64,000 nucleotides of DNA from an uncultured Pseudomonadales bacterium (GTDB lineage Bacteria > Pseudomonadota > Gammaproteobacteria > Pseudomonadales > JANQJO01). Position numbers and translations under genes: made by a program. Each line of letters begins with the position of its first letter. Positions within the stretch are counted from its first letter, which is position 1. This document shows positions 27,729-59,972 of the stretch, piece after piece. A model generated the notes under the pieces. That model saw only the letters and a program-made list of their open reading frames with translations. It ran no database searches and was not told where the DNA came from. Location: NCBI GenBank assembly GCA_964510525.1, contig CAZECE010000141.1, positions 9,338 through 73,337 of the forward strand, read 5' to 3'.

Positions 27729-27748
27729 CGTACTAAATTTTTACATAA

Positions 27749-27794
27749 TGTGACGCACTTCAAATTGTGTGTTTAATCAGGAGTCCACTATAAT
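27749..27794 (+). promoter_or_regulatory. Candidate sigma70 promoter with an upstream CRP/Vfr-like site
   Basis: TGTGA-N6-TCAAA (27749-64), TTGTGT (27765-70), 18-bp spacer, perfect TATAAT (27789-94). Confidence 0.4.
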
Positions 27795-27895
27795 TCAGCG
27801 TGTTTTTCATTAAATTGGCTTTATTTAATGAAATTCTCAGTTAAATCAATGGGTTTTTAAAATTACAGAACGGGTTTTAAAATTACAGAGCAATT

Positions 27896-28687: not shown

Positions 28688-28701
28688 ATTTAGAGTGTAA
28701 A

Positions 28702-35660: not shown

Positions 35661-37550
35661 ATGTGCGGTATCGCGTTCATTTACAATGATTCGGGGAATG
35701 CCGCTGAATGCTCGCATCGGATATCCGAAGCATTAAAAAAAATGCAGCACCGTGGTCCAGACGGTTCTGGTACATTTCAATATCAAAATGCCTTTCTAGG
35801 GCATGTTCGACTGTCAATTATTGATCTCGACTTATCTATACAACCGTTTATTTCAAATGATGAGCGATATGCTCTGATTTTCAACGGTGAAATTTACAAC
35901 TATAAAGCGCTTAGAAACAGCTTTGAAGGTCGTTGGGCATTTAGAACGGGTGGTGATACAGAAGTATTATTAGCCGGCTTAATTTTGGAAGGTACCCATT
36001 TCTTAAACAAAATGGAGGGTATGTGGGCTTTTTGTTATTGGGATAACCATACGGAAACGGCGCTGTTGTGTAGAGACAGGAGCGGCAAAAAACCATTATT
36101 TTTTCGTCAAAACCAGAAAAAGCTGACGTGTGCCTCAGAACTGCCCGCTTTACGCCAATTGGATGCAGATAGCTGGCAAGTCTCGCCAGAAAGCCAGGTT
36201 AATTATTTTAAATACGGTTATTGTTCCCCAGGAAAAACGTTTTATCAAGAAATTCAAGAAATTAAGCCTGGCCATTATCTCTATTGGAAAAAAAACGCGG
36301 TCCCTCAACAAGAGCGATATTGGTCTATTGAAACACAACGGTTTACGGGATCAAAAGTTGAGGCGGCTGAAAAGATTCGTGAGTTGTTTAAAAGTTCCGT
36401 TAAAAAACGTTTGGTCAGTGATGTAGAGGTGGGTACCTTTCTTTCGGGCGGTATTGATTCCTCATTAGTAACAGCTCAAGCTTCTAAACTAACAACGGAT
36501 CCCATTAAGGCCTTTACCATTGGGTATGATGATCAGGTGAGTGATGAGCGCCCTTTTGCTAAAGTCATTGCTGAGAATTTGAATATTGACCATCAAACTT
36601 ATTGTTTGAAGCAGTGGAACCCTAATATTTTAGAGAAGCTATTGAATTCTAGTATTGGTCAACCCTTTGCGGATTCATCAATTTTACCTTCTTATGAAGT
36701 TTCAAAGATGGCAGCAAAATATGTAAAGGTAGCTTTGTCGGGAGATGGGAGTGATGAGCTTTTTTGTGGCTATACCAGATATAAAGTTCGAGCAATTTTA
36801 AAATGGTACTTGCATGCTCCAAACTTTTTTCGTAAGAAATTTAAGTTGCTACTATCGAGAAGTGTATCGGATCATTTTCAACGAAAAAGGTTTTACAGTT
36901 TCATTTATCGCATACTGAATGTGATTGAATGTTTAGAAGATGAAACACCCTATAAAGGTGGTAGAGTTTTTTCAAATCAAAAAATTTTGTCGCTTTTAAA
37001 TACATATCAATCTATACAAAATGGCGTATCGAAAAATGAAGAGGTTTTACAAAGTTTCGATGAAGTCGCTTCTATGATGAAATCGGATTTTTTAAACTAC
37101 TTACCGCAAGATATACACCAAAAAGTGGATCGTGCTTCCATGTTTTGTTCATTAGAAATACGCGCTCCATTTTTGGATTCTGAATTGATTCAGCATGCCT
37201 TCTCTTTACCAGAATCCTGGCATTACGGTAATACACAAAATAAACCCATGCTGCGTTTAGCGTTTAAAAATTTGCTACCACAAGTAATTTGGAATCGTAA
37301 AAAACAAGGCTTTGTCCCGCCTGTTCAAGAGTGGTTAATGGGAGATTTAGGGGGAGAGTTGCGTGCACTGCTCTATTCAGACCGTGAATCTTTACTTAAT
37401 CGTGGTGTGGTAGATCAGATGTTAAATGACCATAAAGCAGGAGTTCTAAATCATACGTATCGTTTGTGGTTGGTATATGTTTATTTGCTATGGAACAATA
37501 AACACCTATCCAGTTTCTCAACCTCTTTAAATGTTGCCAATAAAGTATGA
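35661..37550 (+). CDS. AsnB-family glutamine amidotransferase (glycan amidation type), copy 1
   Basis: MCG N-terminal nucleophile, HRGPD, RLSIIDL, FNGEIYN, LSGGIDSS, SGDGSDELF. Confidence 0.9.
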   Translation: MCGIAFIYNDSGNAAECSHRISEALKKMQHRGPDGSGTFQYQNAFLGHVRLSIIDLDLSIQPFISNDERYALIFNGEIYNYKALRNSFEGRWAFRTGGDTEVLLAGLILEGTHFLNKMEGMWAFCYWDNHTETALLCRDRSGKKPLFFRQNQKKLTCASELPALRQLDADSWQVSPESQVNYFKYGYCSPGKTFYQEIQEIKPGHYLYWKKNAVPQQERYWSIETQRFTGSKVEAAEKIRELFKSSVKKRLVSDVEVGTFLSGGIDSSLVTAQASKLTTDPIKAFTIGYDDQVSDERPFAKVIAENLNIDHQTYCLKQWNPNILEKLLNSSIGQPFADSSILPSYEVSKMAAKYVKVALSGDGSDELFCGYTRYKVRAILKWYLHAPNFFRKKFKLLLSRSVSDHFQRKRFYSFIYRILNVIECLEDETPYKGGRVFSNQKILSLLNTYQSIQNGVSKNEEVLQSFDEVASMMKSDFLNYLPQDIHQKVDRASMFCSLEIRAPFLDSELIQHAFSLPESWHYGNTQNKPMLRLAFKNLLPQVIWNRKKQGFVPPVQEWLMGDLGGELRALLYSDRESLLNRGVVDQMLNDHKAGVLNHTYRLWLVYVYLLWNNKHLSSFSTSLNVANKV

Positions 37551-39740: not shown

Positions 39741-41672
39741 CTAAATATTTAAAAGGCTGTATTCTGTCTTTTCAATTAACATTTGGTATATTTTTTTCTG
39801 ATTGGCGTTTAATTTTTCGACATTTAATTGTTGGAGTAATTCCTTGCTTTTGTTAAGTTTATTTGATTGAAAGAGCATGATTGCCATTTCTAGTTGGTGA
39901 GAATAATTATTTGGTTCAGTGTTAATGGCTTTTTTTAAGTAGTGTAAGGCTATCTCCGGAGTACCTTGAGATTCTATGTAATGCGCAATTTGAGAATAGA
40001 TGTGAGCTTTAAAATAAGGCAGAACTGTTGGATTATCTTCAAAAGCCAACACAATTTTATTGATAAGAGCAGTTTTTGTTTTGCAGGCCTGATTAATGTT
40101 ACAAATAAAAAATTCCTGGATGCGCTTCATGTTTTCGCGCTCTATTTGGACGGTTTTTATTCTGAAAAGTAGTTCTTCAACCCAGGCGTCTTCGGGGGGA
40201 GCACCTACTGATTCATTCAACCTAAGCAGAGCAAAAAGTCCGGATAAGTCGATGTCCAAGTTTAGGTATGTTTGTTCGAAAGCCTCTTTAGCCCGTATGT
40301 AGTTTTCAGATCTGGCGGAGGGCGATTCTTCAAACTGTAACGATAAATAATACCATCTCCCAGCATTGTGTTGTGTGCGATTTGAGCTTGGATTCTTTAG
40401 TGCTTCTGATGCTACAAGGCTTGGCATGTCTTTCCAGTGTTGAGCTCTGAGTGCAGTTGCGCTCAGTAAAATGAGAAAAATAATAGGTAGAATGATGTTG
40501 GCCTTCAAGTTCATATGTGTTATTTCACATGCCTTGATAAGCAGGCCTGAAACTGCTAATAAAATCCCTATCATTGGGAAATAATTTCGATGTTCGTGTA
40601 CGAGTTCGAGAGATAGAATACTGGATTCTATGCTGTGGCTGGTAAGAAACCACAGAGTTCCGAAAAAGAACAATGGTACTGATTTCCGGAATTTAAATGC
40701 TCCTAAGATGACAAAAATCCAAGCAAAAATAGAGAAAGCGGTCGTAGGCTCAAGTAAACTGACAGACTTTTTTATATCATCGTGAAAAAGACTCATTTTT
40801 AGAATATTGGGCAATATTATTTGGTATACGTAAAACCAGAGAACCCTTGTTTGGGTCATGAGTCTTTCATAGATGGTGTAACCACGATTGCTGTAGATAT
40901 TGACCCACCAATCCCAGTTGAAAGCAATACTGATCAATAGGATTGCTATGATCAGCCAGCAACTGCTAACTATACAAGTTAATATAGAGCGCTGTTTGGG
41001 ATCTTTGGTTTCTTTTTTAAAGAAAACGGTTTCTGTTGCCAAGATAATAAAGCCGATAACCACACCATTTTCTTTGCATAGAATGGCGCATATACCAAAA
41101 ATCAAGCACAAGAAAAATGGAAATAAATGATAGCCTTGGTGGTTGATTAAAGTTATACGCCACTTTAAATAAAAGCTGTAGCTCAATACCATAAAGAAAA
41201 AGCACATAGTGGCCATGCGTTGGACAACATAAAGTACTGATGTGAGATTAAAGGGGTGGGCGGCCCAAACAATAGCAAGAAAAATGGGCAGCTTATTTCT
41301 TGCGAAAATTAAGTGTGATTGGTTCTCATCTCTGAAAACTATTCTCATTAACAGAGTCAAACACCAAGCAAGCGCAAAGGTATTAGCCAAGTGTATGATT
41401 AGATTCGTTACTTTGAAGGGGAATGGGTCAAGGCCAAAGTAATATTTTGTAATGGCTAAGGACAAAATGGGAATCGGTCTGCCAAGGGGACCAGTTTCTG
41501 AAAGAAATGCTATTTCTGCTAGTGAGCTGGGGCTTATGTTTTTAAGTATGATGTCTTCGTTTTCTACTAGCGTAGGAAAATCATCGAAAACATAAGGGCC
41601 GTTGAGGGCTGGGGCGTATGCAATTAAAACTAATATTAAAAATGGAAGTAATCTAAGGAGTGTGAGCTTCAC
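39741..41672 (-). CDS. GT-C multi-TM glycosyltransferase with TPR-like tail (TfpW/TMTC-like), directly downstream of pilA
   Basis: YVFDDF acidic motif after TM1, GRPI, HPFNLTSVLYVVQR, KENG, EHRNYFP; about 11 TMs then helical repeats. Confidence 0.75.
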   Translation of the reverse strand: MKLTLLRLLPFLILVLIAYAPALNGPYVFDDFPTLVENEDIILKNISPSSLAEIAFLSETGPLGRPIPILSLAITKYYFGLDPFPFKVTNLIIHLANTFALAWCLTLLMRIVFRDENQSHLIFARNKLPIFLAIVWAAHPFNLTSVLYVVQRMATMCFFFMVLSYSFYLKWRITLINHQGYHLFPFFLCLIFGICAILCKENGVVIGFIILATETVFFKKETKDPKQRSILTCIVSSCWLIIAILLISIAFNWDWWVNIYSNRGYTIYERLMTQTRVLWFYVYQIILPNILKMSLFHDDIKKSVSLLEPTTAFSIFAWIFVILGAFKFRKSVPLFFFGTLWFLTSHSIESSILSLELVHEHRNYFPMIGILLAVSGLLIKACEITHMNLKANIILPIIFLILLSATALRAQHWKDMPSLVASEALKNPSSNRTQHNAGRWYYLSLQFEESPSARSENYIRAKEAFEQTYLNLDIDLSGLFALLRLNESVGAPPEDAWVEELLFRIKTVQIERENMKRIQEFFICNINQACKTKTALINKIVLAFEDNPTVLPYFKAHIYSQIAHYIESQGTPEIALHYLKKAINTEPNNYSHQLEMAIMLFQSNKLNKSKELLQQLNVEKLNANQKKIYQMLIEKTEYSLLNI

Positions 41673-41791
41673 AAAGTTTGTTTCTCAATAGAAAGATGGG
41701 ACTTCTTCTTATGATATCTGTCTAAGGTGCTGTTGATTTAGATATTTATTAAGTGTTCCATATTAATTATATTTAACCGAAAATTAAAAAC

Positions 41792-41827
41792 AAAACAGGC
41801 TCCATAGCACGCTATGGAGCCTGTTTT
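41792..41827 (-). terminator. Intrinsic terminator after pilA
   Basis: Perfect 16-bp inverted repeat aaaacaggctccatag-cacg-ctatggagcctgtttt. Confidence 0.9.
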
Positions 41828-41838
41828 ATTAAGAGCTA

Positions 41839-42318
41839 TTAGATTCGACAATCAGTTGGTAAATACCGATCAGGGATGGTTGTGTTATCTGTCGCAGCTC
41901 CAGCTTGATTGACTCCAGCTGCAGGAAAGGCAGCACCACCACATATCCATACAAGGTTCTGTGCAGTATTTTCAGCAGGGTAGATTGTCAAAGTAGTACC
42001 TGTTATGGCTGCGTTAGCTCTAGCACCCATGGCTACATCGATTTCACCGCTGTCACCAATATCAATTTGGGTTACATAGTTGCCATCATAACTGATAGCT
42101 GTGGCTAAACCTGCAGTGGCGTTATCATTCGGTAAGAAGCCTCGAGCGGCATAATAGTCTGAAATAGCCGTTTTGAACTCACCAGCCATCGCCATAGCTT
42201 CTGTAACTTGAGCTCGTATCGTGTAATCTTTGTATTGCGGTACAGCTACAGCAGCCAAAATGCCGATAATAGCAACAACAATCATTAATTCAATAAGCGT
42301 AAAACCTTTCTGTTTCAT
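41839..42318 (-). CDS. pilA: Type IVa major pilin
   Basis: [29 protein letters not shown] with Glu+5, and a C-terminal disulfide loop (WICG...LPTDC). Confidence 0.97.
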
Positions 42319-42827: not shown

Positions 42828-43976
42828 ATGAAAAGAGAATTTCTACTTTTTGCTAGCAGTACAGTTATTTGCTTACTACTAACTGGAATAGTAATCAAAA
42901 GTTTTTTTCCACAACTTGTATCTACAAATACTGATTTACAGTTAGTACAAATTGATAAAAAAGTCCCCGCTTATTTTGAACATATATTTAGGCTTTCTGA
43001 TTACAACGCTCAAAAATTTATATTACAAGATCCAATAACTCGTGTCAGGGCTGCACCTCTTTTTGATATTGGGCCGAATGCATCGATGGGTCCAAATGAT
43101 CTTTTAGGGTTTCGGAATAAATCTATCCCTAATAAGGCTGATGTTGTTTTTATTGGCGATAGTCAAACTTATGGGAATAACGCATCTATTAATGAAAATT
43201 GGCCAGCCCATTTTTTAAAGAATTCTGTTGCACATTCTTCTGGTTATTCAATGTCAGTAGGGGGTTGGGCTGCTTTACAATATTTTTATATGTCTAAATT
43301 TACAGTCGTTTTTAATCCTAAAACGGTGATAATTGCTTTTTACTCAGGAAATGATTCATTAGAAAGTTTTGGTTTAGCCTATGCTTCGGCATATTGGCAA
43401 GATTTTCGTATTGACCCTAATTTAACAAGCGATGCCATGCCAAAAGTAAATTTTCCACCAAAAGAAGAAGAAATTTGGGGGGTGAGGTTTGACGAAGGGG
43501 ATCCTATTGCTTTTACCCCTACACTCCGACTGTCTTCAAATGCAAACACCCCGGCAGCGATGACGGGTTGGAAAATCATGATGAATACTATGCAAGTATT
43601 GGATGATAGCTTAAAAGGCCTGGGTTCTAGCTTAAAAACAGATTTTTTCGTTACCGTTATTCCTACTAAAGAGTTGACTTATTCGGAACGTATTAAGCGT
43701 GATTTTGGACAAAAACAACTAATTGATCCAATATACCAAACATTAGTTGAGCGTGAGCAAGCTAACATTGAGCTGTTCCAGCAATCAATGCAGTCTTTAA
43801 CTGTGATTAAATTCATCGATGTAGTTGAACCCCTAAAAAATGCGGCCCTTTTGTCCTTAGATTTATACCCTAGAAATCCAGATGGGCATCCATTACCTGA
43901 AGGTTATCAAGTGATTGGTCGCTCTCTTGCTAGAGAAGTTTATTCATTAAAAAATCTTGAGGCTGAAACTAAATAG
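42828..43976 (+). CDS. Membrane-anchored SGNH-family protein
   Basis: N-terminal TM, GDSQTYG, GGW, YSGND and DGHP catalytic blocks. Confidence 0.8.
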   Translation: MKREFLLFASSTVICLLLTGIVIKSFFPQLVSTNTDLQLVQIDKKVPAYFEHIFRLSDYNAQKFILQDPITRVRAAPLFDIGPNASMGPNDLLGFRNKSIPNKADVVFIGDSQTYGNNASINENWPAHFLKNSVAHSSGYSMSVGGWAALQYFYMSKFTVVFNPKTVIIAFYSGNDSLESFGLAYASAYWQDFRIDPNLTSDAMPKVNFPPKEEEIWGVRFDEGDPIAFTPTLRLSSNANTPAAMTGWKIMMNTMQVLDDSLKGLGSSLKTDFFVTVIPTKELTYSERIKRDFGQKQLIDPIYQTLVEREQANIELFQQSMQSLTVIKFIDVVEPLKNAALLSLDLYPRNPDGHPLPEGYQVIGRSLAREVYSLKNLEAETK

Positions 43977-45019
43977 TGCGTTTCAAGATGGTTTCGATAA
44001 GCATACTGATTAAGAATATATTGACCTCGTGCTTATCTTTATTGCTTATAGTTGCCGTAATTGAAATTTTGCTGCAACTCATGCCATTCGTTTCCCATGC
44101 TCCTGAGACGATCTCTATTAATATGGATCAGCCTATTAAGCGCTATAAAGTGCATGATGAGTTTGTTTATGCAAAAGGTCGATTTGGAGACATTGTACAA
44201 AAACATAAAACTAATGAACTGGGTTTCAATACGCCTATCTCTTTTATAAAAGATAAACCGACTCATTGTATGATTGGAGATTCCTATGTAGAGGCGATGC
44301 AGGTAAGCTCAGATGACTCTTTTCATGGTCTATTGAATCAAAATGATGTGTCTGTTTATCCAATAGCATCCAGTGGATCGCCTTTAAGTCAATACATTGC
44401 TTATGCAAAGTGGGCTATAAGAGAATTTAATTGCCAAAAATTGTTTTTTTTCATTATTGAAAATGATTTTGATGAGAGTTTAATATCCGTTAAAAATGCA
44501 CCAGGTTTCCATTACTTTAATGAAAAAGGGCTGCTTACTTTGGTGGAGCACAAAAAGTCTCAATTAAAGGATGGTTTGAAAAACCTTGCTTTAATTAATT
44601 ACTTGCACACAAACCTCGAAATTTCTCGGCTTATTTCGCAGAATCAATCGAGTGACAACAGTTTTGATTCAGACTCTCTAGATAGAAAAGTAAAGAATTC
44701 AATTCACGCCATAGATTTTTTTTTCGAGCATCTACTAAGAATTTCTTTTTCGTTGCAGGATGTAGTTATGGTGTTGGATGGTGATAGGCACTCTATTTAT
44801 AACAATTACACTGATAGGCAAGGGTATAACGCTGTAGTTTATGATTACTTTAAGGACAAGCTAGATGCGTTAAACATCGAAAAGATCGACTTGCACCCCA
44901 TTTTTTTTCAACATTACAAAGAAAATAATAATCAGTTTAACTTTAAGACCGACTATCATTGGAATGAAGTGGGCCACGAGGTTGTCTCTAAAGCATTATT
45001 GACATCAAATCTGATGTAA
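43976..45019 (+). CDS. Membrane-anchored SGNH/AlgX-like protein
   Basis: N-terminal TM, GDSYVEA, ENDF, DYHWN. Confidence 0.8.
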   Translation: MRFKMVSISILIKNILTSCLSLLLIVAVIEILLQLMPFVSHAPETISINMDQPIKRYKVHDEFVYAKGRFGDIVQKHKTNELGFNTPISFIKDKPTHCMIGDSYVEAMQVSSDDSFHGLLNQNDVSVYPIASSGSPLSQYIAYAKWAIREFNCQKLFFFIIENDFDESLISVKNAPGFHYFNEKGLLTLVEHKKSQLKDGLKNLALINYLHTNLEISRLISQNQSSDNSFDSDSLDRKVKNSIHAIDFFFEHLLRISFSLQDVVMVLDGDRHSIYNNYTDRQGYNAVVYDYFKDKLDALNIEKIDLHPIFFQHYKENNNQFNFKTDYHWNEVGHEVVSKALLTSNLM

Positions 45020-45057
45020 TAATGATTTTAAGCTGAATGATGTACATTTATTTAAGG

Positions 45058-46893
45058 TTAATCCAATTCGTATTGGGTTTCATATCTGGTGCTTAATGCC
45101 GGGTTTTGGTCATCTTTATACATGACATGGTTACCTATAACCAATACATCTAAGCCTGTTCCCATGAAACATTTAAAGGCATCTTCAGGGGATTCAACAA
45201 TGGGCTCACCTCTAACATTAAAAGAGGTATTCACTAAAATTGGACATTCTGTCAAGTCATAAAATTTTTGCAGTAAACTATGATACATCGGGTTAGTATC
45301 TTGGTGGACTGTTTGAATACGTGCGCTGTCATCGACATGTGTGATTGCTGGAATTACAGAGTTTTTAATATTAAGTTTGTCGATACCAAACAACAGCTTC
45401 TGGTCTTCTGTGAGCGGTACTTTGTGTTGATCCAAGATTTCAGCGACTAACAGCATATAAGGGCTATCAGTAGTTAAATCAAAGTACTTGTATAAATAAT
45501 CAGCCAAGATCGAGGGCGCGAAGGGCCTAAAAGATTCTCGAAATTTTATTTTTAAGTTTAAATTTTTCTGCATGGTTTCAGATCTTGGGTCAGCCAATAT
45601 AGATCGGCCCCCTAGAGCTCGGGGTCCAAATTCCATACGCCCTTGAAACCAGCCTACGGCCTTTCCTTCTGCAAGTGCTTCAGCCGTTTTTCTGAGCATT
45701 ATCTCGTCTTCAACATAATCAAATTGAGCACCCAGTTGCTCCAGTTGCTGACGGGTGTCTGAGTCACTATATTCTGTTCCCAGATAAGCGCCTTGCATGG
45801 AATCTGGCTTCATAATGTTTCTGGGTTGTGCTTTTTCAAGGTGCCAATAAGCTAGGGCGGCTCCAACAGCTCCTCCGGCATCGCCTGCAGCGGGTTGAAC
45901 CCAAAGAGACTCAATGGGCGTATGTTTTAAAATCTTGCCATTGGCCACACAGTTTAGAGCAACGCCACCTGCCATGCAGAGGTTAGGAATTTTATATTCC
46001 TTATAAAGGTGACTAATCATCTTTATTAAAACAGTTTCAGTGACAGCTTGTACGGATGCGGCTACATCCATATGAAATTGAGAAAGCTCGGACTCTGATT
46101 CTCTAACAGGGTGATTAAATAAAGCTGAGAACCTTTTGTTGGTCATTCTTAGCCCTGTACTGTAATCAAAATAGTGTTGATTTAACCGGAATGAACCATC
46201 TGCTTTGATGTCGATTAGATTATCTAAAATTATATTTTGATAAATAGGGTTACCATAAGGGGCAAGTCCCATGACTTTGTATTCACCGCTGTTAACTTTA
46301 AACCCTAAATAATAAGTAAATGCAGAATACAAAAGCCCCAATGAATGGGGAAAATGTATTTCTTTTTCAATGGAAAGATTGTTGTTATCTCCGATGCACA
46401 GTGCCGTTGTGGTCCACTCACCCACGCCGTCAATAGTGAGAACAAGGGCTTTTTCAAAAGGTGATGGAAAAAAAGCGCTGGCAGCATGGCTAATATGGTG
46501 CTCTGAAAATCGGAGTTTTTCTTCAAAATTGATGTTTGAATCAATTTTTTTTAGAGATTCAATTAGACTTTTTTTTTGGAAGAGTTTTTCTTTGACCCAA
46601 ATAGGAATCGAGTGCGTAAAAGACTTAAAGCCAAAGGGCGCATTAGCAACGTAGGTTTCCAATAGGCGTTCAAATTTTAGAAAGGGTTTGTCATAAAATA
46701 CAATATTATCAATTTCGTTGAGTTTTAGGCTGGTTTCATCAAGTAATCGTATGATGGCATTATGAGGAAAACTAGCATCATGTTTTATTCTGGTAAACCG
46801 TTCTTCTTGTGCAGCAGCAAGAATACTTCCATCTTTAATGATGGCGGCCGCGCTATCGTGATAATAACCAGAAATTCCTAATATGATCGACAT
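45058..46893 (-). CDS. O-carbamoyltransferase (NodU/CmcH/SxtI family)
   Basis: HDSAAA, QEERFTRIKH, HHISHAASAF, EYKVMGLAPYG, GRMEFGPRALGGRS, RESFRPFAP, NTSFNVRGEPI. Confidence 0.95.
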   Translation of the reverse strand: MSIILGISGYYHDSAAAIIKDGSILAAAQEERFTRIKHDASFPHNAIIRLLDETSLKLNEIDNIVFYDKPFLKFERLLETYVANAPFGFKSFTHSIPIWVKEKLFQKKSLIESLKKIDSNINFEEKLRFSEHHISHAASAFFPSPFEKALVLTIDGVGEWTTTALCIGDNNNLSIEKEIHFPHSLGLLYSAFTYYLGFKVNSGEYKVMGLAPYGNPIYQNIILDNLIDIKADGSFRLNQHYFDYSTGLRMTNKRFSALFNHPVRESESELSQFHMDVAASVQAVTETVLIKMISHLYKEYKIPNLCMAGGVALNCVANGKILKHTPIESLWVQPAAGDAGGAVGAALAYWHLEKAQPRNIMKPDSMQGAYLGTEYSDSDTRQQLEQLGAQFDYVEDEIMLRKTAEALAEGKAVGWFQGRMEFGPRALGGRSILADPRSETMQKNLNLKIKFRESFRPFAPSILADYLYKYFDLTTDSPYMLLVAEILDQHKVPLTEDQKLLFGIDKLNIKNSVIPAITHVDDSARIQTVHQDTNPMYHSLLQKFYDLTECPILVNTSFNVRGEPIVESPEDAFKCFMGTGLDVLVIGNHVMYKDDQNPALSTRYETQYELD

Positions 46894-46925
46894 GTCTTAT
46901 GTTTCTTATATTCGTAAAACAGATT

Positions 46926-47075
46926 TTAAAATAATGTGTAAATAAATGGTGCCACTGCCGAGCCTTGAGCTAAGACAATTAAACCACCAAAAACTGAAAT
47001 CACAACAACGATAGGCATCAGCCAATATTTTTTTCGAATTTTTAAAAATTGCCAAAGCTCTTTAATAAAGGACAT
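46926..47075 (-). CDS. 49-aa membrane peptide, DUF5989/SxtK-like (absent from ORF track)
   Basis: Hand translation: MSFIKELWQFLKIRKKYWLMPIVVVISVFGGLIVLAQGSAVAPFIYTLF*. Lies between the sxtJ-like gene and the carbamoyltransferase, same strand. Confidence 0.88.
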   Translation of the reverse strand: MSFIKELWQFLKIRKKYWLMPIVVVISVFGGLIVLAQGSAVAPFIYTLF

Positions 47076-47084
47076 AATTTGACT

Positions 47085-47504
47085 CTAAAATTGATTTTTC
47101 ATGGGCTGGATCGGATGAGTGGATTTGTCTCGTGAGATCCAGTAGCTTTCTAAATTTTTATCATAATGCTGATGTATTAAGTCCCCTTTAATCAGCCTCA
47201 TTAGTAACCCGGTGGGAGTAACCACACAGAAAAAAATGAGTCCCATAATAATTGGAGAAATGATCTTGTGAAGTAACAGGCCAAATTTAAACCAATAATA
47301 ATTTGGCATTCTAAGTATTTTTGGGTAAATAACTGAGATAACAAGAATGATTGCGCCGCAACTTATAGCCCAAAGCCTAATTTGATTTGAATAAAGCAGC
47401 GGCCATAAGCCGATAATCATAAAGACTAGGGTAAAGACGATGCCAAAACTGCGTTCTGATGGCAAAGTGGTATTATTTACTGGTTCAGTACTTTTAGAAT
47501 TCAT
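47085..47504 (-). CDS. SxtJ-family membrane protein
   Basis: ERSFG, two or three TMs, WFKFG.LL...SPIIMG.IFF.V.TP.GLLMR, SYWI.R...MKNQF. Confidence 0.85.
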   Translation of the reverse strand: MNSKSTEPVNNTTLPSERSFGIVFTLVFMIIGLWPLLYSNQIRLWAISCGAIILVISVIYPKILRMPNYYWFKFGLLLHKIISPIIMGLIFFCVVTPTGLLMRLIKGDLIHQHYDKNLESYWISRDKSTHPIQPMKNQF

Positions 47505-47593: not shown

Positions 47594-48487
47594 ATGAGAC
47601 CATTTACAATAATAATTCCCGCTAAAAATGAAGCCAGAGGACTGACTATTTTACTGCCTCAGCTACGTAACTTGTATCCTGATGCACAAGTAATCGTAGT
47701 TAATGATGGCTCAACAGATGAAACTGAAGAAATCTGCCAGAAGAACAAGGTGGAAGTTTGTACCCACCCTTATTCTCAAGGAAATGGAGCAGCTATTAAG
47801 GCCGGTATTAGAGCGGCTAGGCATAGTACTGTTGTCTGTATGGATGCAGATTGCCAGCATCGCTCCGAAGATATTAAGTTTCTTATCGAAGGAATTGAAA
47901 AGGGCTACGACATGGTAGTCGGTGCTCGGAGTCGTTCCTCTCAAGCAGGCTCTCTTAGGGCTTTTGGTAACGGGTTTTACAATAGGCTGGCAACCTGGAT
48001 GGTTGGGCAACCGGTAAAAGATTTAACTTCTGGCTTTAGGGCGGTCAAGACTAACAAATTCAAACAATTTTTAGATTTACTGCCCAATGGTTTTTCTTAT
48101 CCTACCACCATAACCATGTCTTTTTTTCGTTCGGGTTATACCGTCAAATATCATCCCATTGTTGCACCTGAGCGGATTGGTACCAGTCATTTAAATATTT
48201 GGAAAGATGGTACGCGTTTTTTGCTGATTATTTTTAAGATTGGAACACTGTACTCACCATTAAAAATTTTCACGCCCGTCAGCTTTTTAGCTTTTGCACT
48301 GGGGTTACTTCATTATGCAAATACCTATATCACAGCTCGAACCTTTACCAATATGAGTGCTCTGTTATTTGTAACGGCTGTTTTGGTGTTTTTAATGGGG
48401 CTAATATCTGAGCAGATAGCGTCACTTCTTTATACTGTCAGCAGTAAGCAACAAAAGGTGCAAGAGCTAGAATCTGATGACCGATAA
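47594..48487 (+). CDS. GT2 polyprenol-phosphate glycosyltransferase (DPM-synthase-like)
   Basis: IIPAKNE, VNDGSTD, GNGAAIKAG, DADCQH, DLTSGFRA, two C-terminal TMs. Confidence 0.88.
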   Translation: MRPFTIIIPAKNEARGLTILLPQLRNLYPDAQVIVVNDGSTDETEEICQKNKVEVCTHPYSQGNGAAIKAGIRAARHSTVVCMDADCQHRSEDIKFLIEGIEKGYDMVVGARSRSSQAGSLRAFGNGFYNRLATWMVGQPVKDLTSGFRAVKTNKFKQFLDLLPNGFSYPTTITMSFFRSGYTVKYHPIVAPERIGTSHLNIWKDGTRFLLIIFKIGTLYSPLKIFTPVSFLAFALGLLHYANTYITARTFTNMSALLFVTAVLVFLMGLISEQIASLLYTVSSKQQKVQELESDDR

Positions 48488-52727: not shown

Positions 52728-54572
52728 TTATTGCGTACGTTCTTGTTCAAACCAAATAAAATAGCAGTAAATTAACCATAACTGTAAGCCGTAATCCTGT
52801 TGCCCTGTTTGGTGTTTCTTAATCAAGTTTTGAAGAGAATTACTGTTTACATAATGCGTATCGAGCTGACTCATTTCTAATAGCTTTTTACCAAGCCTGC
52901 CTTTAAACCAGTTGCCTATTGGTACGGCGAACCCTTGTTTTTTTCTAGCAAGAAAATTTTTAGGGAAATGATTGGTATAGGTATCTTTTAAAATGTGTTT
53001 TCCATGCAGTAATTTTTGTTTGTAGTGAATAGGCAGACTGTTAACAAAGCGTATAACGGACTTATCTAGAAAGGGAGCTCTGGGCTCGACAGAGTTTGCC
53101 ATGGCGGCACGATCTACTTTGAGTAATATGTCTTCAGGTAAATAGTGAGTTTGATCACAAAACTGCATTTTGCTGACAGGGTTGGTATTAAAATCATTAA
53201 GCGGGTAGGGGCGTAGCTCAGCATGTGGAAAAAGTGCTTGAAAGATTCCCTTTTCGAATTGCTCGGGTGCGAATTGTTGATGGTTTTGCCGTGTACGTTC
53301 ACAAAAATTGGCGAGCAGCCGAAGTCTGCGCTTTATACTGCCACTGTGGTGTTTAGTTGTATCGCCCAACAAGGCGGATAGTTTATTTAGAGTGAATCGA
53401 AATAAGGGGTTGCCTAGGTGCAGAGTGTCGTAAACATATCGTGCTTGATATCGTCGGTAGCCTGAAAATAGCTCATCCGCGCCATCACCACTTAATACAA
53501 CTTTTACGTGCTGGCTTGCTAACTGAAACGCAAGGAATGTGGGGAGTATAGAAATATCGGCGAAGGGTTCACCTATGTGCTGCAATATCAACTTCGTTAA
53601 ACGCTCTTGATCAAAATCTTGCAGTGTGATTTCAGAGTGATCTGAGCCAATTTGGTTTGCAATGATTCGGGCATGTCGGCTTTCATCGTAACTTTTTTCA
53701 TCAAAACCAATGCAAAAGGTTTTTAAAGGCTTAGAGCTTTGTTTTGCGGCTAGGCAAGCAACTATGGATGAATCCACTCCTCCAGAGAGTAAGCACCCTA
53801 CTTCAACGTCAGATACTAGGCGTTTCTTAACTGATTCTTCTAATTCTATTTTTAGTTGATCCTTCGCTTCGTCATAGGTACCCTGAAATGGCGTAATTGA
53901 TTCAATCGGTGACCAATAAGGCTGAATATCTATCTGTGCTTGTGGCTGCCATGTGGCGTAGCATCCAGGGGGCAATTTGTGAATATCTTGGTAAATGGTT
54001 TTATCGGTTGGTGTATAGCCATACTGGAAATAATGGCTTAAAGCACTTTGATTAGTTGCTGGTGAAGATTGTAATATTTTTTTTAAAGCCGGTAACTCTG
54101 AGCTTAGCGCTAACTCATTATTGAGCGTTGTGTAATACAGTGGCTTTTTTCCAATAGGGTCTCGAGCGAGAAAAACGCTGTTTTCTTGATGATTAACAAA
54201 TGCAAAAGCCCACATACCATTTAATTTTGTAAGGAAAGCGGGTCCTTCCAACATGAGGCCTGCCAATAGCACTTCAGTATCGCCATGGGTTTTGAATGAC
54301 CATCTTGGGCTGAGCTGGGTTCTAAGGGCTTTGTAATTATAAATTTCGCCGTTGTAGGTGAGGGTGTGGTTTTTATCCGGGGATTGTATTGGTTGATTAC
54401 TGGTCGATAAATCAATAATTGAGAGTCGAGTGTGTCCAATATAAAAAGGCGACATGAATAAGCTATTTTGAGCGTCAGGGCCGCGGTGAGTCAAGCTGCG
54501 CAAGGCTGAAGAAAAGTGTTGTTGCTTTTCTTCAGAAGGTTTTGTTGTGTATTGGAGAAGAATACCGCACAT
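52728..54572 (-). CDS. AsnB-family glutamine amidotransferase (glycan amidation type), copy 2
   Basis: MCG start at 54572, HRGPD, RLSIIDL, LSGGVDSS, SGDGADELFSGY, KVDRAAMANSVE.R.PFLD. Confidence 0.9.
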   Translation of the reverse strand: MCGILLQYTTKPSEEKQQHFSSALRSLTHRGPDAQNSLFMSPFYIGHTRLSIIDLSTSNQPIQSPDKNHTLTYNGEIYNYKALRTQLSPRWSFKTHGDTEVLLAGLMLEGPAFLTKLNGMWAFAFVNHQENSVFLARDPIGKKPLYYTTLNNELALSSELPALKKILQSSPATNQSALSHYFQYGYTPTDKTIYQDIHKLPPGCYATWQPQAQIDIQPYWSPIESITPFQGTYDEAKDQLKIELEESVKKRLVSDVEVGCLLSGGVDSSIVACLAAKQSSKPLKTFCIGFDEKSYDESRHARIIANQIGSDHSEITLQDFDQERLTKLILQHIGEPFADISILPTFLAFQLASQHVKVVLSGDGADELFSGYRRYQARYVYDTLHLGNPLFRFTLNKLSALLGDTTKHHSGSIKRRLRLLANFCERTRQNHQQFAPEQFEKGIFQALFPHAELRPYPLNDFNTNPVSKMQFCDQTHYLPEDILLKVDRAAMANSVEPRAPFLDKSVIRFVNSLPIHYKQKLLHGKHILKDTYTNHFPKNFLARKKQGFAVPIGNWFKGRLGKKLLEMSQLDTHYVNSNSLQNLIKKHQTGQQDYGLQLWLIYCYFIWFEQERTQ

Positions 54573-54707
54573 TTGATTCATTATACTACAGGCTGATTAA
54601 GTAAAGTCGTTGTTTTTATTATATATATCCTATACTTGAAAGGTTTTCTCGGTAAATAGGTTGGGCTTTTAAAAGATAACGAGGGAAAACCTTAATTAAC
54701 TAGGAAA

Positions 54708-55700: not shown

Positions 55701-56331
55701 TGAGTACCATGAATCACGTTTAACGTATGATCCAAAGCGAGAAATTTTATGGAAGACATTGGTAACATACTATTTCCAGAAAATGATTTCTGAAGATGCG
55801 CATGTGTTAGAGTTAGGGGCCGGTTATTGTGATTTTATTAATCATGTTAAAGCAAACAAAAAAATGGCTTTGGATCTCTGGCCTGGGGTAGTTGATTATG
55901 CAGCTAATGATGTTGAGTGTGTGGTTTCGGATATTGCTGGAGAATTAGATATTTCAGACAACACTTTGGATTTTGTGTTTGCGAGTAATATTTTTGAACA
56001 TATTTCACAGGAAAAGTTAGCTGAAACGCTGTTAAATTTGAAAAAAAAATTAAAGAAAACGAGTACTCTTTGTATTTTGCAACCAAATTATCGATTTGCT
56101 TACAAAGAGTATTTTGATGATTATACGCATGTATCTATTTGGTCGGATGTTTCATTAAGTGATTTTTTACACGTTAATGGCTTCAGAGTTAGGCGTATTC
56201 ACCCTGGTTTTTTGCCATTATCAATAAAGTCCCGTCTGCCAACGCACCCTTGGTTGATTCGAGCGTATCTAAAAAGCCCCATTAAACCCTTAGCTAAACA
56301 GATGTTATTGTTTGCGGAGCCAGTTTCGTGA
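55693..56331 (+). CDS. Class I SAM-dependent methyltransferase
   Basis: LELGAGYCDF, FASNIFEH, QPNYR.AY.EYFDDYTH. Confidence 0.85.
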   Translation: MGNEYHESRLTYDPKREILWKTLVTYYFQKMISEDAHVLELGAGYCDFINHVKANKKMALDLWPGVVDYAANDVECVVSDIAGELDISDNTLDFVFASNIFEHISQEKLAETLLNLKKKLKKTSTLCILQPNYRFAYKEYFDDYTHVSIWSDVSLSDFLHVNGFRVRRIHPGFLPLSIKSRLPTHPWLIRAYLKSPIKPLAKQMLLFAEPVS

Positions 56332-58115
56332 ATGTATTAAGTCTATTTAACAGCAATAGGCGTTTTATAAATGTTGTGGCTATTGTATTTTTGGTTTTTT
56401 ACACGATCTGGCTATATTATCCAACAATTTATTTTGATTTTGTTTATTTTGATGACGATCGTTTGCTGTTGAGGCATTCGATGTTATACGAATGCACAAC
56501 GCTTAGTGCGTGCTTTAATGCTTTCTTAACTCATATTCCGGAGTGTGAAGAACCACTGGTTATCAGAAATTTAACTTGGTTGTTGGATGCGAAGATATTT
56601 GGGTTTCAGAACCCGATGGGGTATCACATATCAAATATACTTTACCATGCATCTGTAGTAGTTCTGGCATTTGTTTTTCTTCTTAGATTTACCCGTCACT
56701 TTTATCTTTCTTTTCTTGTGACTTTTTTATATTCATCTCTAGCTATTCACACTGAATCTGTTGGGTGGATCATGGGAAGAAAGGATATTTTGTCTGGTGT
56801 TTTTTTATTTCTCCTTCTAAATACAGAAATATCTTATTCAAAAGCAGTTAATTATAAAAATAAGTACTCTTTATATTTTATAACCATTTTGTTAGTAACA
56901 ATGGCCTGTTTATCTAAAATATCTTCACTTTCTTTTTGCTTTGTTTTATTGATGTTTAAATTGATAACAAATAAAGATGCTTGTCATGATTATTTTTTCA
57001 GAAGATCAATTTTAGAAGTCATACCACATTTTACAATATCATTATTCTTGTACGTGTGGTATGCCTCGATTTTAGAGCCTATTGTGCTTAATAAAACCGC
57101 AGAGTTTTCTTATTTTGAAAAAATTTATATTTTACTTTTTGTAAATCCATTAGTATTTCTAAAATACTTAATGTTAATACTCAGTCCAGCTAAGCTTTCT
57201 GTAGTTTATAGTTGGCAGGGTATCCATGAAGTTAATAGTGCCTTTGATTGCGTTCTATCTGCAGCAGTACTATTTACACTTTCTGGATTTTTGATTTTCC
57301 TATTTAAAAAGAGGTTCTACAAGTCTGTTTTCTGTTTTTTATCTGTGTTGGCTTTGCTTGCTCCATATTCTAATCTTGTAAATTTTGGATGGTGGTATGC
57401 TAATAGATATATATACGTGGCTTCATTTTTTTTAATTGCAGCAATCGGTATAGCTATAAAAAAAATAGCTAATAGTCGCGTTAGAAAAATATTGGTTAAT
57501 ACTTTTTTTATTTGTATTCTTTTGATAAATACCGTGCAAGCAAAACTACATATTCCTGCATGGAAAAATATTGATAACTTTTGTGATCACCATCTGGCCG
57601 TCTCTCAAACTAAACAGGCTACAATTAGCTGGTGTATTAAAATTGTCGAAAATTACTCTAATTATTATCCTGATGAAAAAAGGCAAGCCATTTTAAAGAG
57701 ATGGTTAGAGATCGCATTAGAATCTTCAAAAGAAGTTTTTGATAATGATTTAAGAATTAGAAAAGATTATGCATTACTAAATTACAGTATTGGGCGCTTA
57801 TATTTTTTGTTAGGCGTATCGTTAGATAAGCAACTTTACTATTACAAACGATCCTTTGAATTAGATTCAGATTATTTAGAATCAAGCTTTACATTAGCTC
57901 AAGCTTATTTAGAAAAAATCAGATTAAATAATGGAGAACATAAAAATAATAAAGAGTGGATTGAATTGTCGGCAATGTACTTCGTACACTATTTTAAAGA
58001 GGTGGATTGGAATTTAGAGGTGCAAAATCAATATGACTTATTTTTTCCTATGTTCTCAAATTATCCAGAAGTACAAAAAAGACTTGAAGATGTAAGAAGC
58101 GAAAGAGTTAGGTGA
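56328..58115 (+). CDS. TMTC-like GT-C glycosyltransferase, paralog A
   Basis: FVYFDDD, YHISN, HTESVGWIMGRKDIL, SKIS, ANRYIY; multi-TM with helical C-terminal tail. Confidence 0.75.
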   Translation: MNVLSLFNSNRRFINVVAIVFLVFYTIWLYYPTIYFDFVYFDDDRLLLRHSMLYECTTLSACFNAFLTHIPECEEPLVIRNLTWLLDAKIFGFQNPMGYHISNILYHASVVVLAFVFLLRFTRHFYLSFLVTFLYSSLAIHTESVGWIMGRKDILSGVFLFLLLNTEISYSKAVNYKNKYSLYFITILLVTMACLSKISSLSFCFVLLMFKLITNKDACHDYFFRRSILEVIPHFTISLFLYVWYASILEPIVLNKTAEFSYFEKIYILLFVNPLVFLKYLMLILSPAKLSVVYSWQGIHEVNSAFDCVLSAAVLFTLSGFLIFLFKKRFYKSVFCFLSVLALLAPYSNLVNFGWWYANRYIYVASFFLIAAIGIAIKKIANSRVRKILVNTFFICILLINTVQAKLHIPAWKNIDNFCDHHLAVSQTKQATISWCIKIVENYSNYYPDEKRQAILKRWLEIALESSKEVFDNDLRIRKDYALLNYSIGRLYFLLGVSLDKQLYYYKRSFELDSDYLESSFTLAQAYLEKIRLNNGEHKNNKEWIELSAMYFVHYFKEVDWNLEVQNQYDLFFPMFSNYPEVQKRLEDVRSERVR

Positions 58116-58166
58116 GTATTAGAATACTAATGATTTTTTTATTGCATATATATTCTTTTTTTTAAA

Positions 58167-59972
58167 ATGAATAAATTAACTCAACTAATTAGAAGTAATC
58201 AAATATTAAGTATGGTAGTTGTTGCTTTTTTATTTGGTTACTCTATTTTCTTGTATCTTCCAAGCATCCAATTCGATTTTGTTTATTTTGATGATGATCG
58301 CTTGGTATTAAGGCAGGGTGTTTTTTATGACTGTGGAGGTTTTAGTGATTGTGTTAAGGCGTTTATTAATTACATTCCTACCGCAGAAGAGCCTTTAATA
58401 TTTAGAAATGTAACATGGTTAGTGGATGCCAAAATCTTTGGTCATGAAAATCCATTTGGTTATCATTTAGGAAATGTTGTATACCATGCTTTGGTAATCG
58501 TATTCGCTTTTATTTTTCTTTACCGTTTTACAAAAAAAATCATTCCATCTTTTCTAGCTGTTTTCTTATACGCCTCTCTGGCTATTCATACCGAGTCAGT
58601 GGGTTGGATTATGGGTCGTAAGGATATTTTATCAGCTCTTTTTTTATTTTTACTATTAAACGTGGAGCTTTATTATTTTAAAGCTAAAAAATTAAGAAAC
58701 AAAAGTACATATTACTCTCTGACTCTGCTGCTTATTTCTCTGGCTTGTTTGTCGAAAATTTCAGCCATTACTTTTTGTATTATCTTATTTCTATTTAAGA
58801 TATTGCTTAATATACAAGAGAATAAAATTCTTTTAAAAAAATCTCTGTTAGAGACTTTACCTCACATATTCGTGTCTGTTTTGATTTATCAATGGTATAG
58901 CGGGGTTCTGGAAGTCAGTGGTGTACTAAAAATTTCGACACAATTTTCGTTGATGGAAAAGCTGTACATTCTGTTTGTCATAGATCCGCTGGTTTTGATC
59001 AAATACATTTTTTTAGTTTTAAGCCCACATAAATTATCAGTTTCATATCAGTGGTTGGGTATTGAAGAAAAGCTTAGCGTTTACGATTATGGGCTTTCTT
59101 TTTTGGTTATTATAACCTGCTTGTTAATATTGTGTCATTTAGTGATAAAGAAAAAGTATAGAATTAGTTTCTTTTTTCTCTCTTTATTTTTTTTACTCAT
59201 TCCTTATTCGAATATGGTTAATTATGGTTGGTGGTATGCCAATCGATATTTTTACGTAGCCTCATTTTTTCTGATTTCTTCGGCTGTGATTTTTTTAAGT
59301 GATTTTACTTTTAGTCGAATAGCTAAAATAGCAATGTCTTTTCTTTATATTAGTTTAATTGTCATTAATGTTGTACAAATAAAAGCACATTTACCTGTTT
59401 GGAAAGATTCAGATTCACTTTGTAATCATCATTTGTCCATTTCAAGATTTAAGAAAGGGACTGTTAAATGGTGTATGAAAATAATAGAAAATCACTCTTA
59501 TGATTTGCCTAAAGAACAAAAGAATAAGATGCTCTCTAAATGGTTATCGTTGGGTATTAAGGCTTTAGAATTTGAAAATGATGATGAATATAGTGTCACT
59601 AAAACGGATTTCATACTTAATTATCGTGTGGGGCGGTATTTGTATTTGTTGAAAGCTCCTTTGGATCAGCAAATACATTATTTCCAACGTTCTTTTGAAT
59701 TAAATCCAAAATTTCCAGATGCGAGTTTTGCCTTAGCTCAGTCTTATTTTGGGTTGGTAAGTATAAATAGCGATTCACTAGTGGCTAATAAATTTGCAGA
59801 GATCTCTGGTCAGTATTTTATGCGGTATTTTGAAAATGTAGTATGGAACCCATCGGCTGAAGCTCAGTTTGAACCAATTTATTTGGCGTTTTCGGATCAT
59901 CCGGAAATTCAAAGTAATCTCTTAAAGATAAAAAATGTAAAAACACAAAAAGTAAAAAATGGTTTTCACTAG
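58167..59972 (+). CDS. TMTC-like GT-C glycosyltransferase, paralog B
   Basis: Same motifs as paralog A, aligned by eye over the full length (FVYFDDD, EEPL, HTESVGWIMGRKDIL, GWWYANRY). Confidence 0.75.
   Translation: MNKLTQLIRSNQILSMVVVAFLFGYSIFLYLPSIQFDFVYFDDDRLVLRQGVFYDCGGFSDCVKAFINYIPTAEEPLIFRNVTWLVDAKIFGHENPFGYHLGNVVYHALVIVFAFIFLYRFTKKIIPSFLAVFLYASLAIHTESVGWIMGRKDILSALFLFLLLNVELYYFKAKKLRNKSTYYSLTLLLISLACLSKISAITFCIILFLFKILLNIQENKILLKKSLLETLPHIFVSVLIYQWYSGVLEVSGVLKISTQFSLMEKLYILFVIDPLVLIKYIFLVLSPHKLSVSYQWLGIEEKLSVYDYGLSFLVIITCLLILCHLVIKKKYRISFFFLSLFFLLIPYSNMVNYGWWYANRYFYVASFFLISSAVIFLSDFTFSRIAKIAMSFLYISLIVINVVQIKAHLPVWKDSDSLCNHHLSISRFKKGTVKWCMKIIENHSYDLPKEQKNKMLSKWLSLGIKALEFENDDEYSVTKTDFILNYRVGRYLYLLKAPLDQQIHYFQRSFELNPKFPDASFALAQSYFGLVSINSDSLVANKFAEISGQYFMRYFENVVWNPSAEAQFEPIYLAFSDHPEIQSNLLKIKNVKTQKVKNGFH

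Follow-up and report, generated by a model that had tools for sequence, protein, structure and literature searches.

Polymers of the bacterial envelope are acylated outside the cytoplasm by two known routes, MBOAT-SGNH (which includes the Dlt pathway) and AT3-SGNH, both of which proceed via an acyl-tyrosine. In the MBOAT-SGNH route, the tyrosine belongs to an FxYxxF motif at an extracytoplasmic C-terminus, the "acyl shuttle", which is loaded by the MBOAT protein and unloaded by the SGNH transferases DltD and PatB, the acyl-tyrosine serving as the donor for these transferases (PMC12148441). In the Dlt pathway, the motif is carried by a microprotein, DltX; in the other pathways, it is fused to the MBOAT protein (PMC12148441). 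In the saxitoxin clusters of cyanobacteria, the list of sxt genes runs directly from sxtI through sxtJ and sxtK to the GDSL-type sxtL, and these four have one common phylogenetic origin (PMC2684587). SxtJ and SxtK are called unknown or "regulatory" in the sxt literature, and SxtL is a GDSL-type protein of ~430 amino acids. Here, we describe a module of five genes from the same four families as sxtI-J-K-L that is located in a 64,000-nucleotide stretch (the window) of contig CAZECE010000141.1 from an uncultured Pseudomonadales bacterium. With a carbamoyltransferase gene tied to those of two small membrane proteins, one of which ends in the shuttle motif, and with anchored SGNH enzymes next to it, the module probably carbamoylates a sugar polymer that is exported to the surface. 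We give an even chance to the proposal that its five genes form one envelope O-carbamoylation machine, which would follow the logic of the Dlt and MBOAT-SGNH systems but would do so without an MBOAT protein.

The module is made up of the following elements, with positions given in window coordinates:

47085..47504, minus strand: SxtJ-family membrane protein of 139 amino acids (PF19588, 38.3 bits against a cut-off of 24.4)
46926..47075, minus strand: DUF5989 (SxtK-like) microprotein of 49 amino acids (PF19451, matched over all 49 positions with 94.5 bits, the cut-off being 27)
46929..46946, minus strand: FIYTLF hexapeptide, residues 44-49 of the DUF5989 protein with the tyrosine at position 46, an FxYxxF motif at the extreme C-terminus
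45058..46893, minus strand: O-carbamoyltransferase (CT) of the NodU/CmcH/TobZ family, 611 amino acids (Carbam_trans_N and Carbam_trans_C)
43976..45019, plus strand: SGNH2, a signal-anchored AlgX/AlgJ-like protein of 347 amino acids (Pfam ALGX, 29.7 bits against a cut-off of 26.5)
42828..43976, plus strand: SGNH1, a signal-anchored protein of 382 amino acids (recognised by its motifs, family alignment and SGNH fold)

By these profile and motif assignments, the parts belong to known families, namely a NodU/TobZ-type CT, SxtJ, DUF5989 and SGNH/AlgX. The original prediction, made from the sequence alone and without database searches, had described these five genes, and the open reading frame listing and profile searches recovered all of them in place. 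The layout that it had described was also confirmed: the genes of SxtJ, DUF5989 and the CT (the triplet, below) are co-oriented on the minus strand and converge on two anchored SGNH genes with intact catalytic residues. The SxtJ stop is followed by a 9-nt spacer and the DUF5989 start in the same frame (window 47075-47087), the convergent CT and SGNH2 genes are separated by a 38-bp gap, and the SGNH1 stop overlaps the SGNH2 start by 1 nt. A transmembrane (TM) scan revealed a single hydrophobic helix, at the N-terminus, in both SGNH proteins. A scan of the module for promoters and terminators yielded no more sites than shuffled sequence, with the exception of the terminator of the neighbouring pilA gene. 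The gene order here (J-K-I), the convergent orientation of the SGNH genes and the surface-glycan context distinguish the window from the saxitoxin clusters, whose I-J-K-L order is reproduced in two of the related loci described below (L086 and L087).

A parallel to the acyl shuttle, which the original prediction does not mention, is found in the DUF5989 microprotein. Its N-terminus is basic and amphipathic (KIRKK), a single TM helix spans residues 18-36, and the tail at the C-terminus carries no charge. Because KIRKK precedes the helix and the uncharged tail follows it, the protein is predicted to have, like DltX, its N-terminus inside and its C-terminus outside the cytoplasm. DltX of B. thuringiensis, which is 48 amino acids long, begins with MERLKEIWSRP and continues through a TM helix to ...FIYNEF (PMC5541007); the DUF5989 protein of the window reads MSFIKELW..., TM helix, ...FIYTLF. 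A microprotein of 48-49 amino acids with an xxKE[IL]W N-terminus, one TM helix and a C-terminal FIYxxF with an invariant tyrosine is thus common to the Dlt pathway and the module. The original prediction had likened the module to the Dlt and MBOAT systems, and the size, predicted topology and C-terminal FxYxxF of DUF5989 do fit a shuttle of the DltX/PatA kind. In terms of sequence, the homology of DUF5989 to DltX is marginal: a global hhalign alignment of 45 columns at 27% identity (P = 0.022) suggests it but falls short of proof.

The tyrosine motif is a constant feature of the DUF5989 family, which comprises 2,402 database clusters at 90% identity, nearly all of exactly 49 amino acids. The tyrosine is invariant in all 77 copies from the surveyed loci, and the exact C-terminal FxYxxF is present in 73 of these and in 116 of 120 database relatives. 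Such C-termini are otherwise rare. Of the 990 reading frames in the window, no more than three have FxYxxF as their C-terminus (those of DUF5989, of an MBOAT protein encoded elsewhere in the window and of one antisense frame), and among ~1,300 selected genes of the 80 surveyed loci, the motif terminates DUF5989 and five MBOAT proteins only. The sole match to DUF5989 in Pfam and PDB searches, a light-harvesting protein, was judged to be due to chance. We found no paper in the literature that names DUF5989.

To place the module in a comparative context, we searched for relatives of SxtJ by alignment, found them in 558 stretches of species-representative genomes and analysed the 80 best loci with flanks of up to 10 kb. 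SGNH-like genes in these loci were called with an iterated hidden Markov model (HMM) seeded with the BLAST cluster that holds SGNH1 and SGNH3 (an AlgX-like protein encoded further along the window), plus SGNH2. The CT is present in 78 and DUF5989 in 76 of the 80 loci, and the order SxtJ>DUF5989>CT is almost always maintained (76-78 of the 80 loci), in taxa that include Alpha-, Beta- and Gammaproteobacteria, Acidobacteriota, Gemmatimonadota, Nitrospirota and Binatia. As the genes upstream of SxtJ are heterogeneous and unrelated, with a housekeeping character (RsmB, thiamine pyrophosphate enzymes and GT4 glycosyltransferases, for example), the unit begins at SxtJ.

The downstream side of the triplet is the one at which SGNH genes accumulate. 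Among 35 same-strand genes located directly 3′ of the CT gene, Pfam assigns 12 to Lipase_GDSL_2, eight to Lipase_GDSL and three to ALGX. The HMM found 48 SGNH-like genes in 31 of the 80 loci, 46 of them with an N-terminal hydrophobic segment, and tandem paralogs are frequent (five in L064 and three each in L076 and L039). An SGNH-like gene occupies the +1 position relative to the CT in 21 of 69 cases, compared to 4 of 529 genes (0.8%) that lie beyond the fourth position (odds ratio 57, p = 9e-18). The original prediction had proposed a neighbourhood survey for SGNH genes, and this 57-fold enrichment is its positive outcome. SGNH2-like genes directly follow the CT in L059 and L064. MBOAT genes are present in only five of the 80 loci, and the multi-TM neighbours (n=37) include four MBOAT proteins and one AT3 protein; the constant partners of DUF5989 are SxtJ and the CT. 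The gene arrangement is nonrandom, for the order of the triplet and its proximity to SGNH genes both reappear in different phyla. The window's own SxtJ was matched on four 2-kb metagenome contigs only, all of which keep the arrangement GT2-SxtJ-DUF5989. As a separate observation, a heparinase II/III-like gene follows the CT in place of an SGNH gene in five loci (approximately L003, L009, L040, L073 and L075).

The association is also visible from the side of the SGNH proteins. The SGNH1 family has 365 relatives, typically of ~445 amino acids. Two of the six relatives located on long contigs, from Zooshikella ganghwensis and a Desulfobulbaceae genome, belong to tight CT>SxtJ>DUF5989>SGNH operons, in which the gap between the DUF5989 and SGNH genes is 2 and 13 nt. 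The neighbours of these operons are genes of glycolysis or of other housekeeping functions, and neither glycan nor MBOAT genes are found close by. Among the metagenome relatives (80 loci), 16 are joined directly to the triplet, two are beside an MBOAT gene and the rest are solitary. The two beside an MBOAT gene are L105 (7500-8897) and L136 (295-1692), of which L136 carries both an MBOAT gene and the CT triplet, and such neighbours suggest that one SGNH family may accept from either kind of shuttle.

The CT of the window matches Carbam_trans_N (7e-108, 361.5 bits) and Carbam_trans_C (4.5e-72, 241.6 bits) far above the cut-offs, and aligns over its full length to the solved structures of NovN (3e-91), GdmN (2e-80) and TobZ (1e-70). 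Its architecture, an N-terminal Kae1-like domain followed by a C-terminal YrdC-like domain, is that of the two-domain enzyme found in NodU/NolO, CmcH, NovN, GdmN and TobZ. Whereas those enzymes act alone, in the cytoplasm and on soluble acceptors, genes for the CT subfamily represented in the window almost always come together with those for SxtJ and DUF5989. A TM scan of the CT found no TM helix or hydrophobic segment, so the enzyme is predicted to be soluble. Our literature search found no paper that ties a carbamoyltransferase to an SGNH protein, an MBOAT protein, a microprotein or an acyl-shuttle mechanism.

SGNH1 carries GDS at residues 110-112 (nt 43155-43163), GND at 174-176 and DGHP at 352-355 (nt 43881-43892), and thus covers blocks I (GDS), II (G), III (GxND) and V (His) in addition to having the SGNH fold. 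Residues G110, D111, S112, G145, G174, N175, D176 and H354 are invariant in the family alignment (A4); the block V acid located two residues ahead of the histidine is D or N in the family and is not invariant. Although the sole Pfam match is weak (Lipase_GDSL_2, E = 0.008), an AlphaFold2 (AF2) model with a predicted local distance difference test (pLDDT) score of 87 matches GDSL/SGNH esterases with a Foldseek probability of 1.0. The TM helix spans residues 5-23. The fold search does not separate a transferase from a hydrolase. SGNH2 has GDS at residues 101-103 (nt 44276-44284), DYHW at 326-329 (nt 44951-44962) and a TM helix at 15-33, and its ALGX match is partial (model positions 46-126 of 268). 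It belongs, together with several of the partners in other loci, to the AlgX/AlgJ type of SGNH proteins, a group known as transferases.

Three further features of SGNH1 were recorded. The highest query-normalised TM-score among its Foldseek matches, 0.44, is that of CgnD (8a2n) from the crocagin pathway. The window protein is without the ~65-residue C-terminal domain of most of its relatives. The juxtamembrane region (~28-100) is strongly conserved and modelled with low confidence, as expected of a partner-binding segment.

SxtJ displays three hydrophobic helices in the TM scan, and its AF2 model (pLDDT 80) places helices at residues 17-37 and 44-59 and a long one at 61-105, followed by a conserved yet disordered C-terminal tail that ends in M[KR]xQF. 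Residues conserved at a level of at least 90% among 264 relatives are S16, R18, F20, G21, F24, F28, P35, W45, L64, N68, W71, G75, L78, P84, P97, D108, Y121, W122, Q138 and F139. The family is very large, with 14,056 representatives at E <= 0.001, the abundant marine Pelagibacter included. No reliable natural fusion that would fix the topology of SxtJ was found among its 150 best representatives. The sole candidate for an SxtJ-DUF5989 fusion, P0415, was treated as a gene-calling artefact, and its junction, ...KNQF-W-GKQ-L-SFLKE..., is the one expected from a TGA stop read as Trp and an internal start read as Leu. P0415 is a distant relative, and it keeps the SxtJ-DUF5989 spacing of the window, which suggests conserved translational coupling.

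Combining these elements, we propose the following relay. The soluble CT would convert ATP and carbamoyl phosphate to carbamoyl-AMP in the cytoplasm, as is known for its family. The three-helix SxtJ and DUF5989 would hold the CT at the inner membrane, a role suggested by their near-obligate gene linkage. The carbamoyl group would then be transferred onto Tyr46 in the extracytoplasmic FxYxxF of DUF5989, in the way that an acyl group is loaded onto the C-terminus of DltX or PatA; the motif, size and predicted topology of the microprotein all point to this. Finally, the serine of a signal-anchored SGNH protein would take over the carbamoyl group and pass it on to an exported glycan, at one of its hydroxyls; this is consistent with the gene adjacency, with the membrane anchors and with catalytic residues that are intact. 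Of the two SGNH paralogs, each may be responsible for positions of its own, or both may work as a pair like AlgJ and AlgX. The acceptor in this organism is likely a polysaccharide or other glycan of the low-GC island that surrounds the module. That DUF5989/SxtK is a carbamoyl-tyrosine shuttle which, together with SxtJ and a NodU-type CT, constitutes the first MBOAT- and AT3-independent machine feeding periplasmic SGNH transferases is a claim to which we assign slightly less than an even chance.

The relay resembles the Dlt pathway of teichoic acid D-alanylation (DltA/DltC/DltB/DltX/DltD) in its proposed activation via a cytoplasmic adenylate and, beyond the microprotein, in its membrane-anchored SGNH proteins, the final transferase of the Dlt pathway being of this type. 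It differs from the Dlt pathway in that (i) an MBOAT protein and a carrier protein are absent, (ii) the activating enzyme is a carbamoyltransferase of the Kae1/YrdC type, (iii) the membrane partner, the three-helix SxtJ, shows no similarity to DltB, and (iv) the group carried would be carbamoyl. The MBOAT-SGNH systems PatA/PatB, AlgI/AlgJ/AlgX and WssH/WssI share with the module the C-terminal FxYxxF, anchored SGNH/AlgX-like partners and a location in glycan loci. Unlike in these systems, the motif of the module resides on a free microprotein and is not fused to an MBOAT protein, MBOAT or AT3 genes are absent from most loci that combine the triplet with SGNH genes, and the donor chemistry would involve ATP and carbamoyl phosphate instead of acetyl-CoA.

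The idea of trans-envelope carbamoylation, which the original prediction had put forward, is strengthened by these results because DUF5989 carries the FxYxxF motif and SGNH genes are enriched after the CT; the membrane anchors and the MBOAT-free operons agree with it, whereas the pilin target that it named finds no support (see below). The accompanying proposal of a membrane relay by SxtJ and SxtK gains plausibility for DUF5989 from its tyrosine motif but finds no support for SxtJ, as the following shows.

A number of observations weigh against the proposed relay. Its weakest step is the crossing of the membrane by the carbamoyl group, for there is no evident route from the cytoplasmic CT to a periplasmic tyrosine. 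SxtJ offers little in this respect: it is small, its model has no fold relative in the PDB (nothing under E = 2 in Foldseek), it shows no similarity to the window's MBOAT protein in hhalign, and no charged residue inside its helices reaches 90% conservation among the 264 relatives. Its topology is ambiguous by charge counts over the same set, because the loop at residues 60-75 is basic and so is the C-terminal tail. Searches with DUF5989 against Pfam (E <= 10) and PDB sequences revealed no link to DltX (DUF3687). Esterases and thioesterases match the SGNH1 model as well as anything else, and carbamoyl-serine enzymes generally turn over slowly. To our knowledge, the characterised NodU-family enzymes all carbamoylate their final acceptor directly in the cytoplasm. 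Finally, ~60% of the triplets have no SGNH gene within two genes, and ~80% of the SGNH1-family genes lie away from any triplet. Considering the enriched adjacency and the joined operons on the one hand and these solitary SGNH1-family genes on the other, the link between the triplet and SGNH proteins is strong but not obligate.

The genomic surroundings of the module bear on the nature of the acceptor and on the alternatives to the relay. The module is part of a 27-kb island (~35.6-62.5 kb) that has a GC content of 31-39%, compared to 45-48% in the backbone, and that forms an insertion in the pil region, with pilBCD on one side and housekeeping genes on the other. The relevant neighbours are as follows:

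47594..48487, plus strand: GT2 glycosyltransferase resembling polyprenyl-phosphate-hexose synthases (Glycos_transf_2, 3e-28)
41839..42318, minus strand: pilA, divergent from SGNH1 and 510 bp away from it
35661-37550 and 52728-54581: two AsnB-like amidotransferases of the island
59959-61332, plus strand: MBOAT protein (MBOAT, 6e-32) with the C-terminus ...SPFLYFQF (FLYFQF at nt 61312-61329)
61332-62459, plus strand: SGNH3, an AlgX-like, signal-anchored protein (ALGX, 4.6e-23) with GDS at 107 and DTHW at 344

The glycan genes of the island encode several GT4 enzymes, a GT2, a Wzx/MurJ-like flippase and three methyltransferases. Three large multi-TM proteins are also encoded, of 643 and 601 amino acids (weak TPR) and of 595 amino acids (weak TMTC_DUF1736). 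The GT2 gene at 47594-48487 is divergent from SxtJ across a 90-bp gap. The best NCBIfam matches of its product are AglJ, dolichyl-phosphate-hexose transferase, PpgS and ArnC-like proteins, all under the cut-offs, and the enzyme may supply a lipid-linked sugar for periplasmic glycosylation. The 595- and 601-residue proteins (56328-59972) are adjacent paralogs that are 46% identical and have ~9 TM helices each; they are possibly GT-C enzymes of the periplasm that depend on polyprenyl-phosphate sugars and are fed by this GT2. If the glycan were assembled in the periplasm by such GT-C-like enzymes, a periplasmic route of modification would be useful. Based on their profile matches, the translationally coupled MBOAT and SGNH3 genes, 15 kb downstream of the module in the same island, are a canonical acetyl-shuttle pair, one that the original prediction does not mention. 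Their presence raises an obvious alternative, in which SGNH1 and SGNH2 might serve the MBOAT protein.

According to this alternative, SGNH1 and SGNH2 would be additional AlgJ/AlgX-like partners of the island MBOAT protein, and their adjacency to the CT would be incidental. The MBOAT protein does have its own FLYFQF motif, alginate-type systems employ several SGNH-like proteins, and genes of the SGNH1 family occasionally adjoin an MBOAT gene, as in L105 and L136. However, the MBOAT gene is already translationally coupled to SGNH3, and SGNH1 and SGNH2 are 15 kb away from it but 38 bp away from the CT. The preference of SGNH1 relatives for the triplet over MBOAT genes (16 against two of 80) also speaks against this explanation, and we consider it very improbable. 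A more serious alternative takes the characterised relatives of the CT at face value. NovN, GdmN, TobZ and NodU act directly on the acceptor, and the homologous CT might likewise carbamoylate, in the cytoplasm, a nucleotide sugar or a sugar linked to undecaprenyl phosphate or diphosphate, with SxtJ and DUF5989 doing no more than tethering or orienting it at the inner leaflet and the SGNH proteins being unrelated O-acetyl esterases or transferases whose presence in glycan loci is coincidental. For a CT that has no TM helix, tethering to the membrane is a simple job that two small membrane proteins could do, the divergently adjacent GT2 resembles polyprenyl-phosphate-sugar synthases, and most triplet loci have no adjacent SGNH gene. 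What a mere tether leaves unexplained is the invariant tyrosine of FxYxxF at an uncharged and predicted extracytoplasmic C-terminus, the enrichment of SGNH genes directly after the CT and the existence of tight four-gene operons without glycan genes. On balance, we regard direct cytoplasmic carbamoylation as unlikely, though a real contender.

The SGNH proteins could also act in the opposite direction, as periplasmic decarbamoylases or editing esterases that trim or regulate a group installed in the cytoplasm. A precedent exists in SxtL, which was proposed to cleave a carbamoyl group (PMC2885083). The closest folds of SGNH1 are those of esterases and thioesterases, and it retains the catalytic Ser, His, Gly and Asn. 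Such a role is, however, difficult to reconcile with the AlgX/AlgJ-type character of SGNH2 and several partners elsewhere or with the shuttle motif in the operon, which indicates a donor and not a hydrolase substrate, and two to five paralogous hydrolases beside the installing enzyme would be hard to rationalise; we consider it improbable. The location of pilA invites the last explanation, namely that the module specifically modifies the type IV pilin or its glycan. The original prediction had placed the module immediately beside pilA and had named a pilin as a possible acceptor, and the gene is indeed close, at the 510 bp given above, and is followed by a gene for a multi-TM and TPR protein that is a possible pilin glycosyltransferase. 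Against this, none of the 80 related loci has a pilin gene near the triplet, pilA has its own strong terminator, and the module sits within the 27-kb glycan island. We therefore regard the glycan of the island as the likelier acceptor and give specific modification of the pilin the slimmest chance of the explanations considered.

If envelope O-carbamoylation by the proposed relay is correct, it would represent a third and widespread way of acylating envelope polymers, with thousands of protein clusters and hundreds of species involved. To the two existing routes, it would add the drive of an adenylate-forming CT, a free tyrosine-shuttle microprotein and carbamoyl as a new group. The sxtJ and sxtK genes, long without an assigned role, would be explained as well, and two very widespread families would acquire a testable function. 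By analogy, the odds that the module works like Dlt and MBOAT-SGNH systems, yet without an MBOAT partner, appear to us to be balanced. O-carbamoyl groups affect surface glycans in their charge, hydrogen bonding and antigenicity. Because the masses of carbamoyl and acetyl differ by only ~1 Da, O-carbamoyl is easily missed beside acetyl, and knowledge of the genes therefore shows analysts where to look.

The remainder of the window was characterised by Pfam scans of ~45 of the 60 window open reading frames of at least 110 amino acids, with the smaller ones in the 1-26 kb region left out. The scanned frames contain glycan, pilus and housekeeping genes only and no saxitoxin core genes (the SxtA-type polyketide synthase-like enzyme, amidinotransferase and others), so the window is no toxin cluster. 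Its gene content appears gammaproteobacterial. The terminator of pilA is strong and has a 19-bp stem (41830-41789). The gene after pilA (39741-42318 region) encodes the 643-residue protein, which has at least eight TM helices and a C-terminal TPR region and which might be a pilin glycosyltransferase of the TfpW kind. In DNA of backbone GC content immediately upstream of pilD, a set of genes for exopolysaccharide initiation and export (26325-31070) encodes Bac_transf, Poly_export/SLBB, a GNVR-like chain-length protein and an AAA_31 kinase-like protein.

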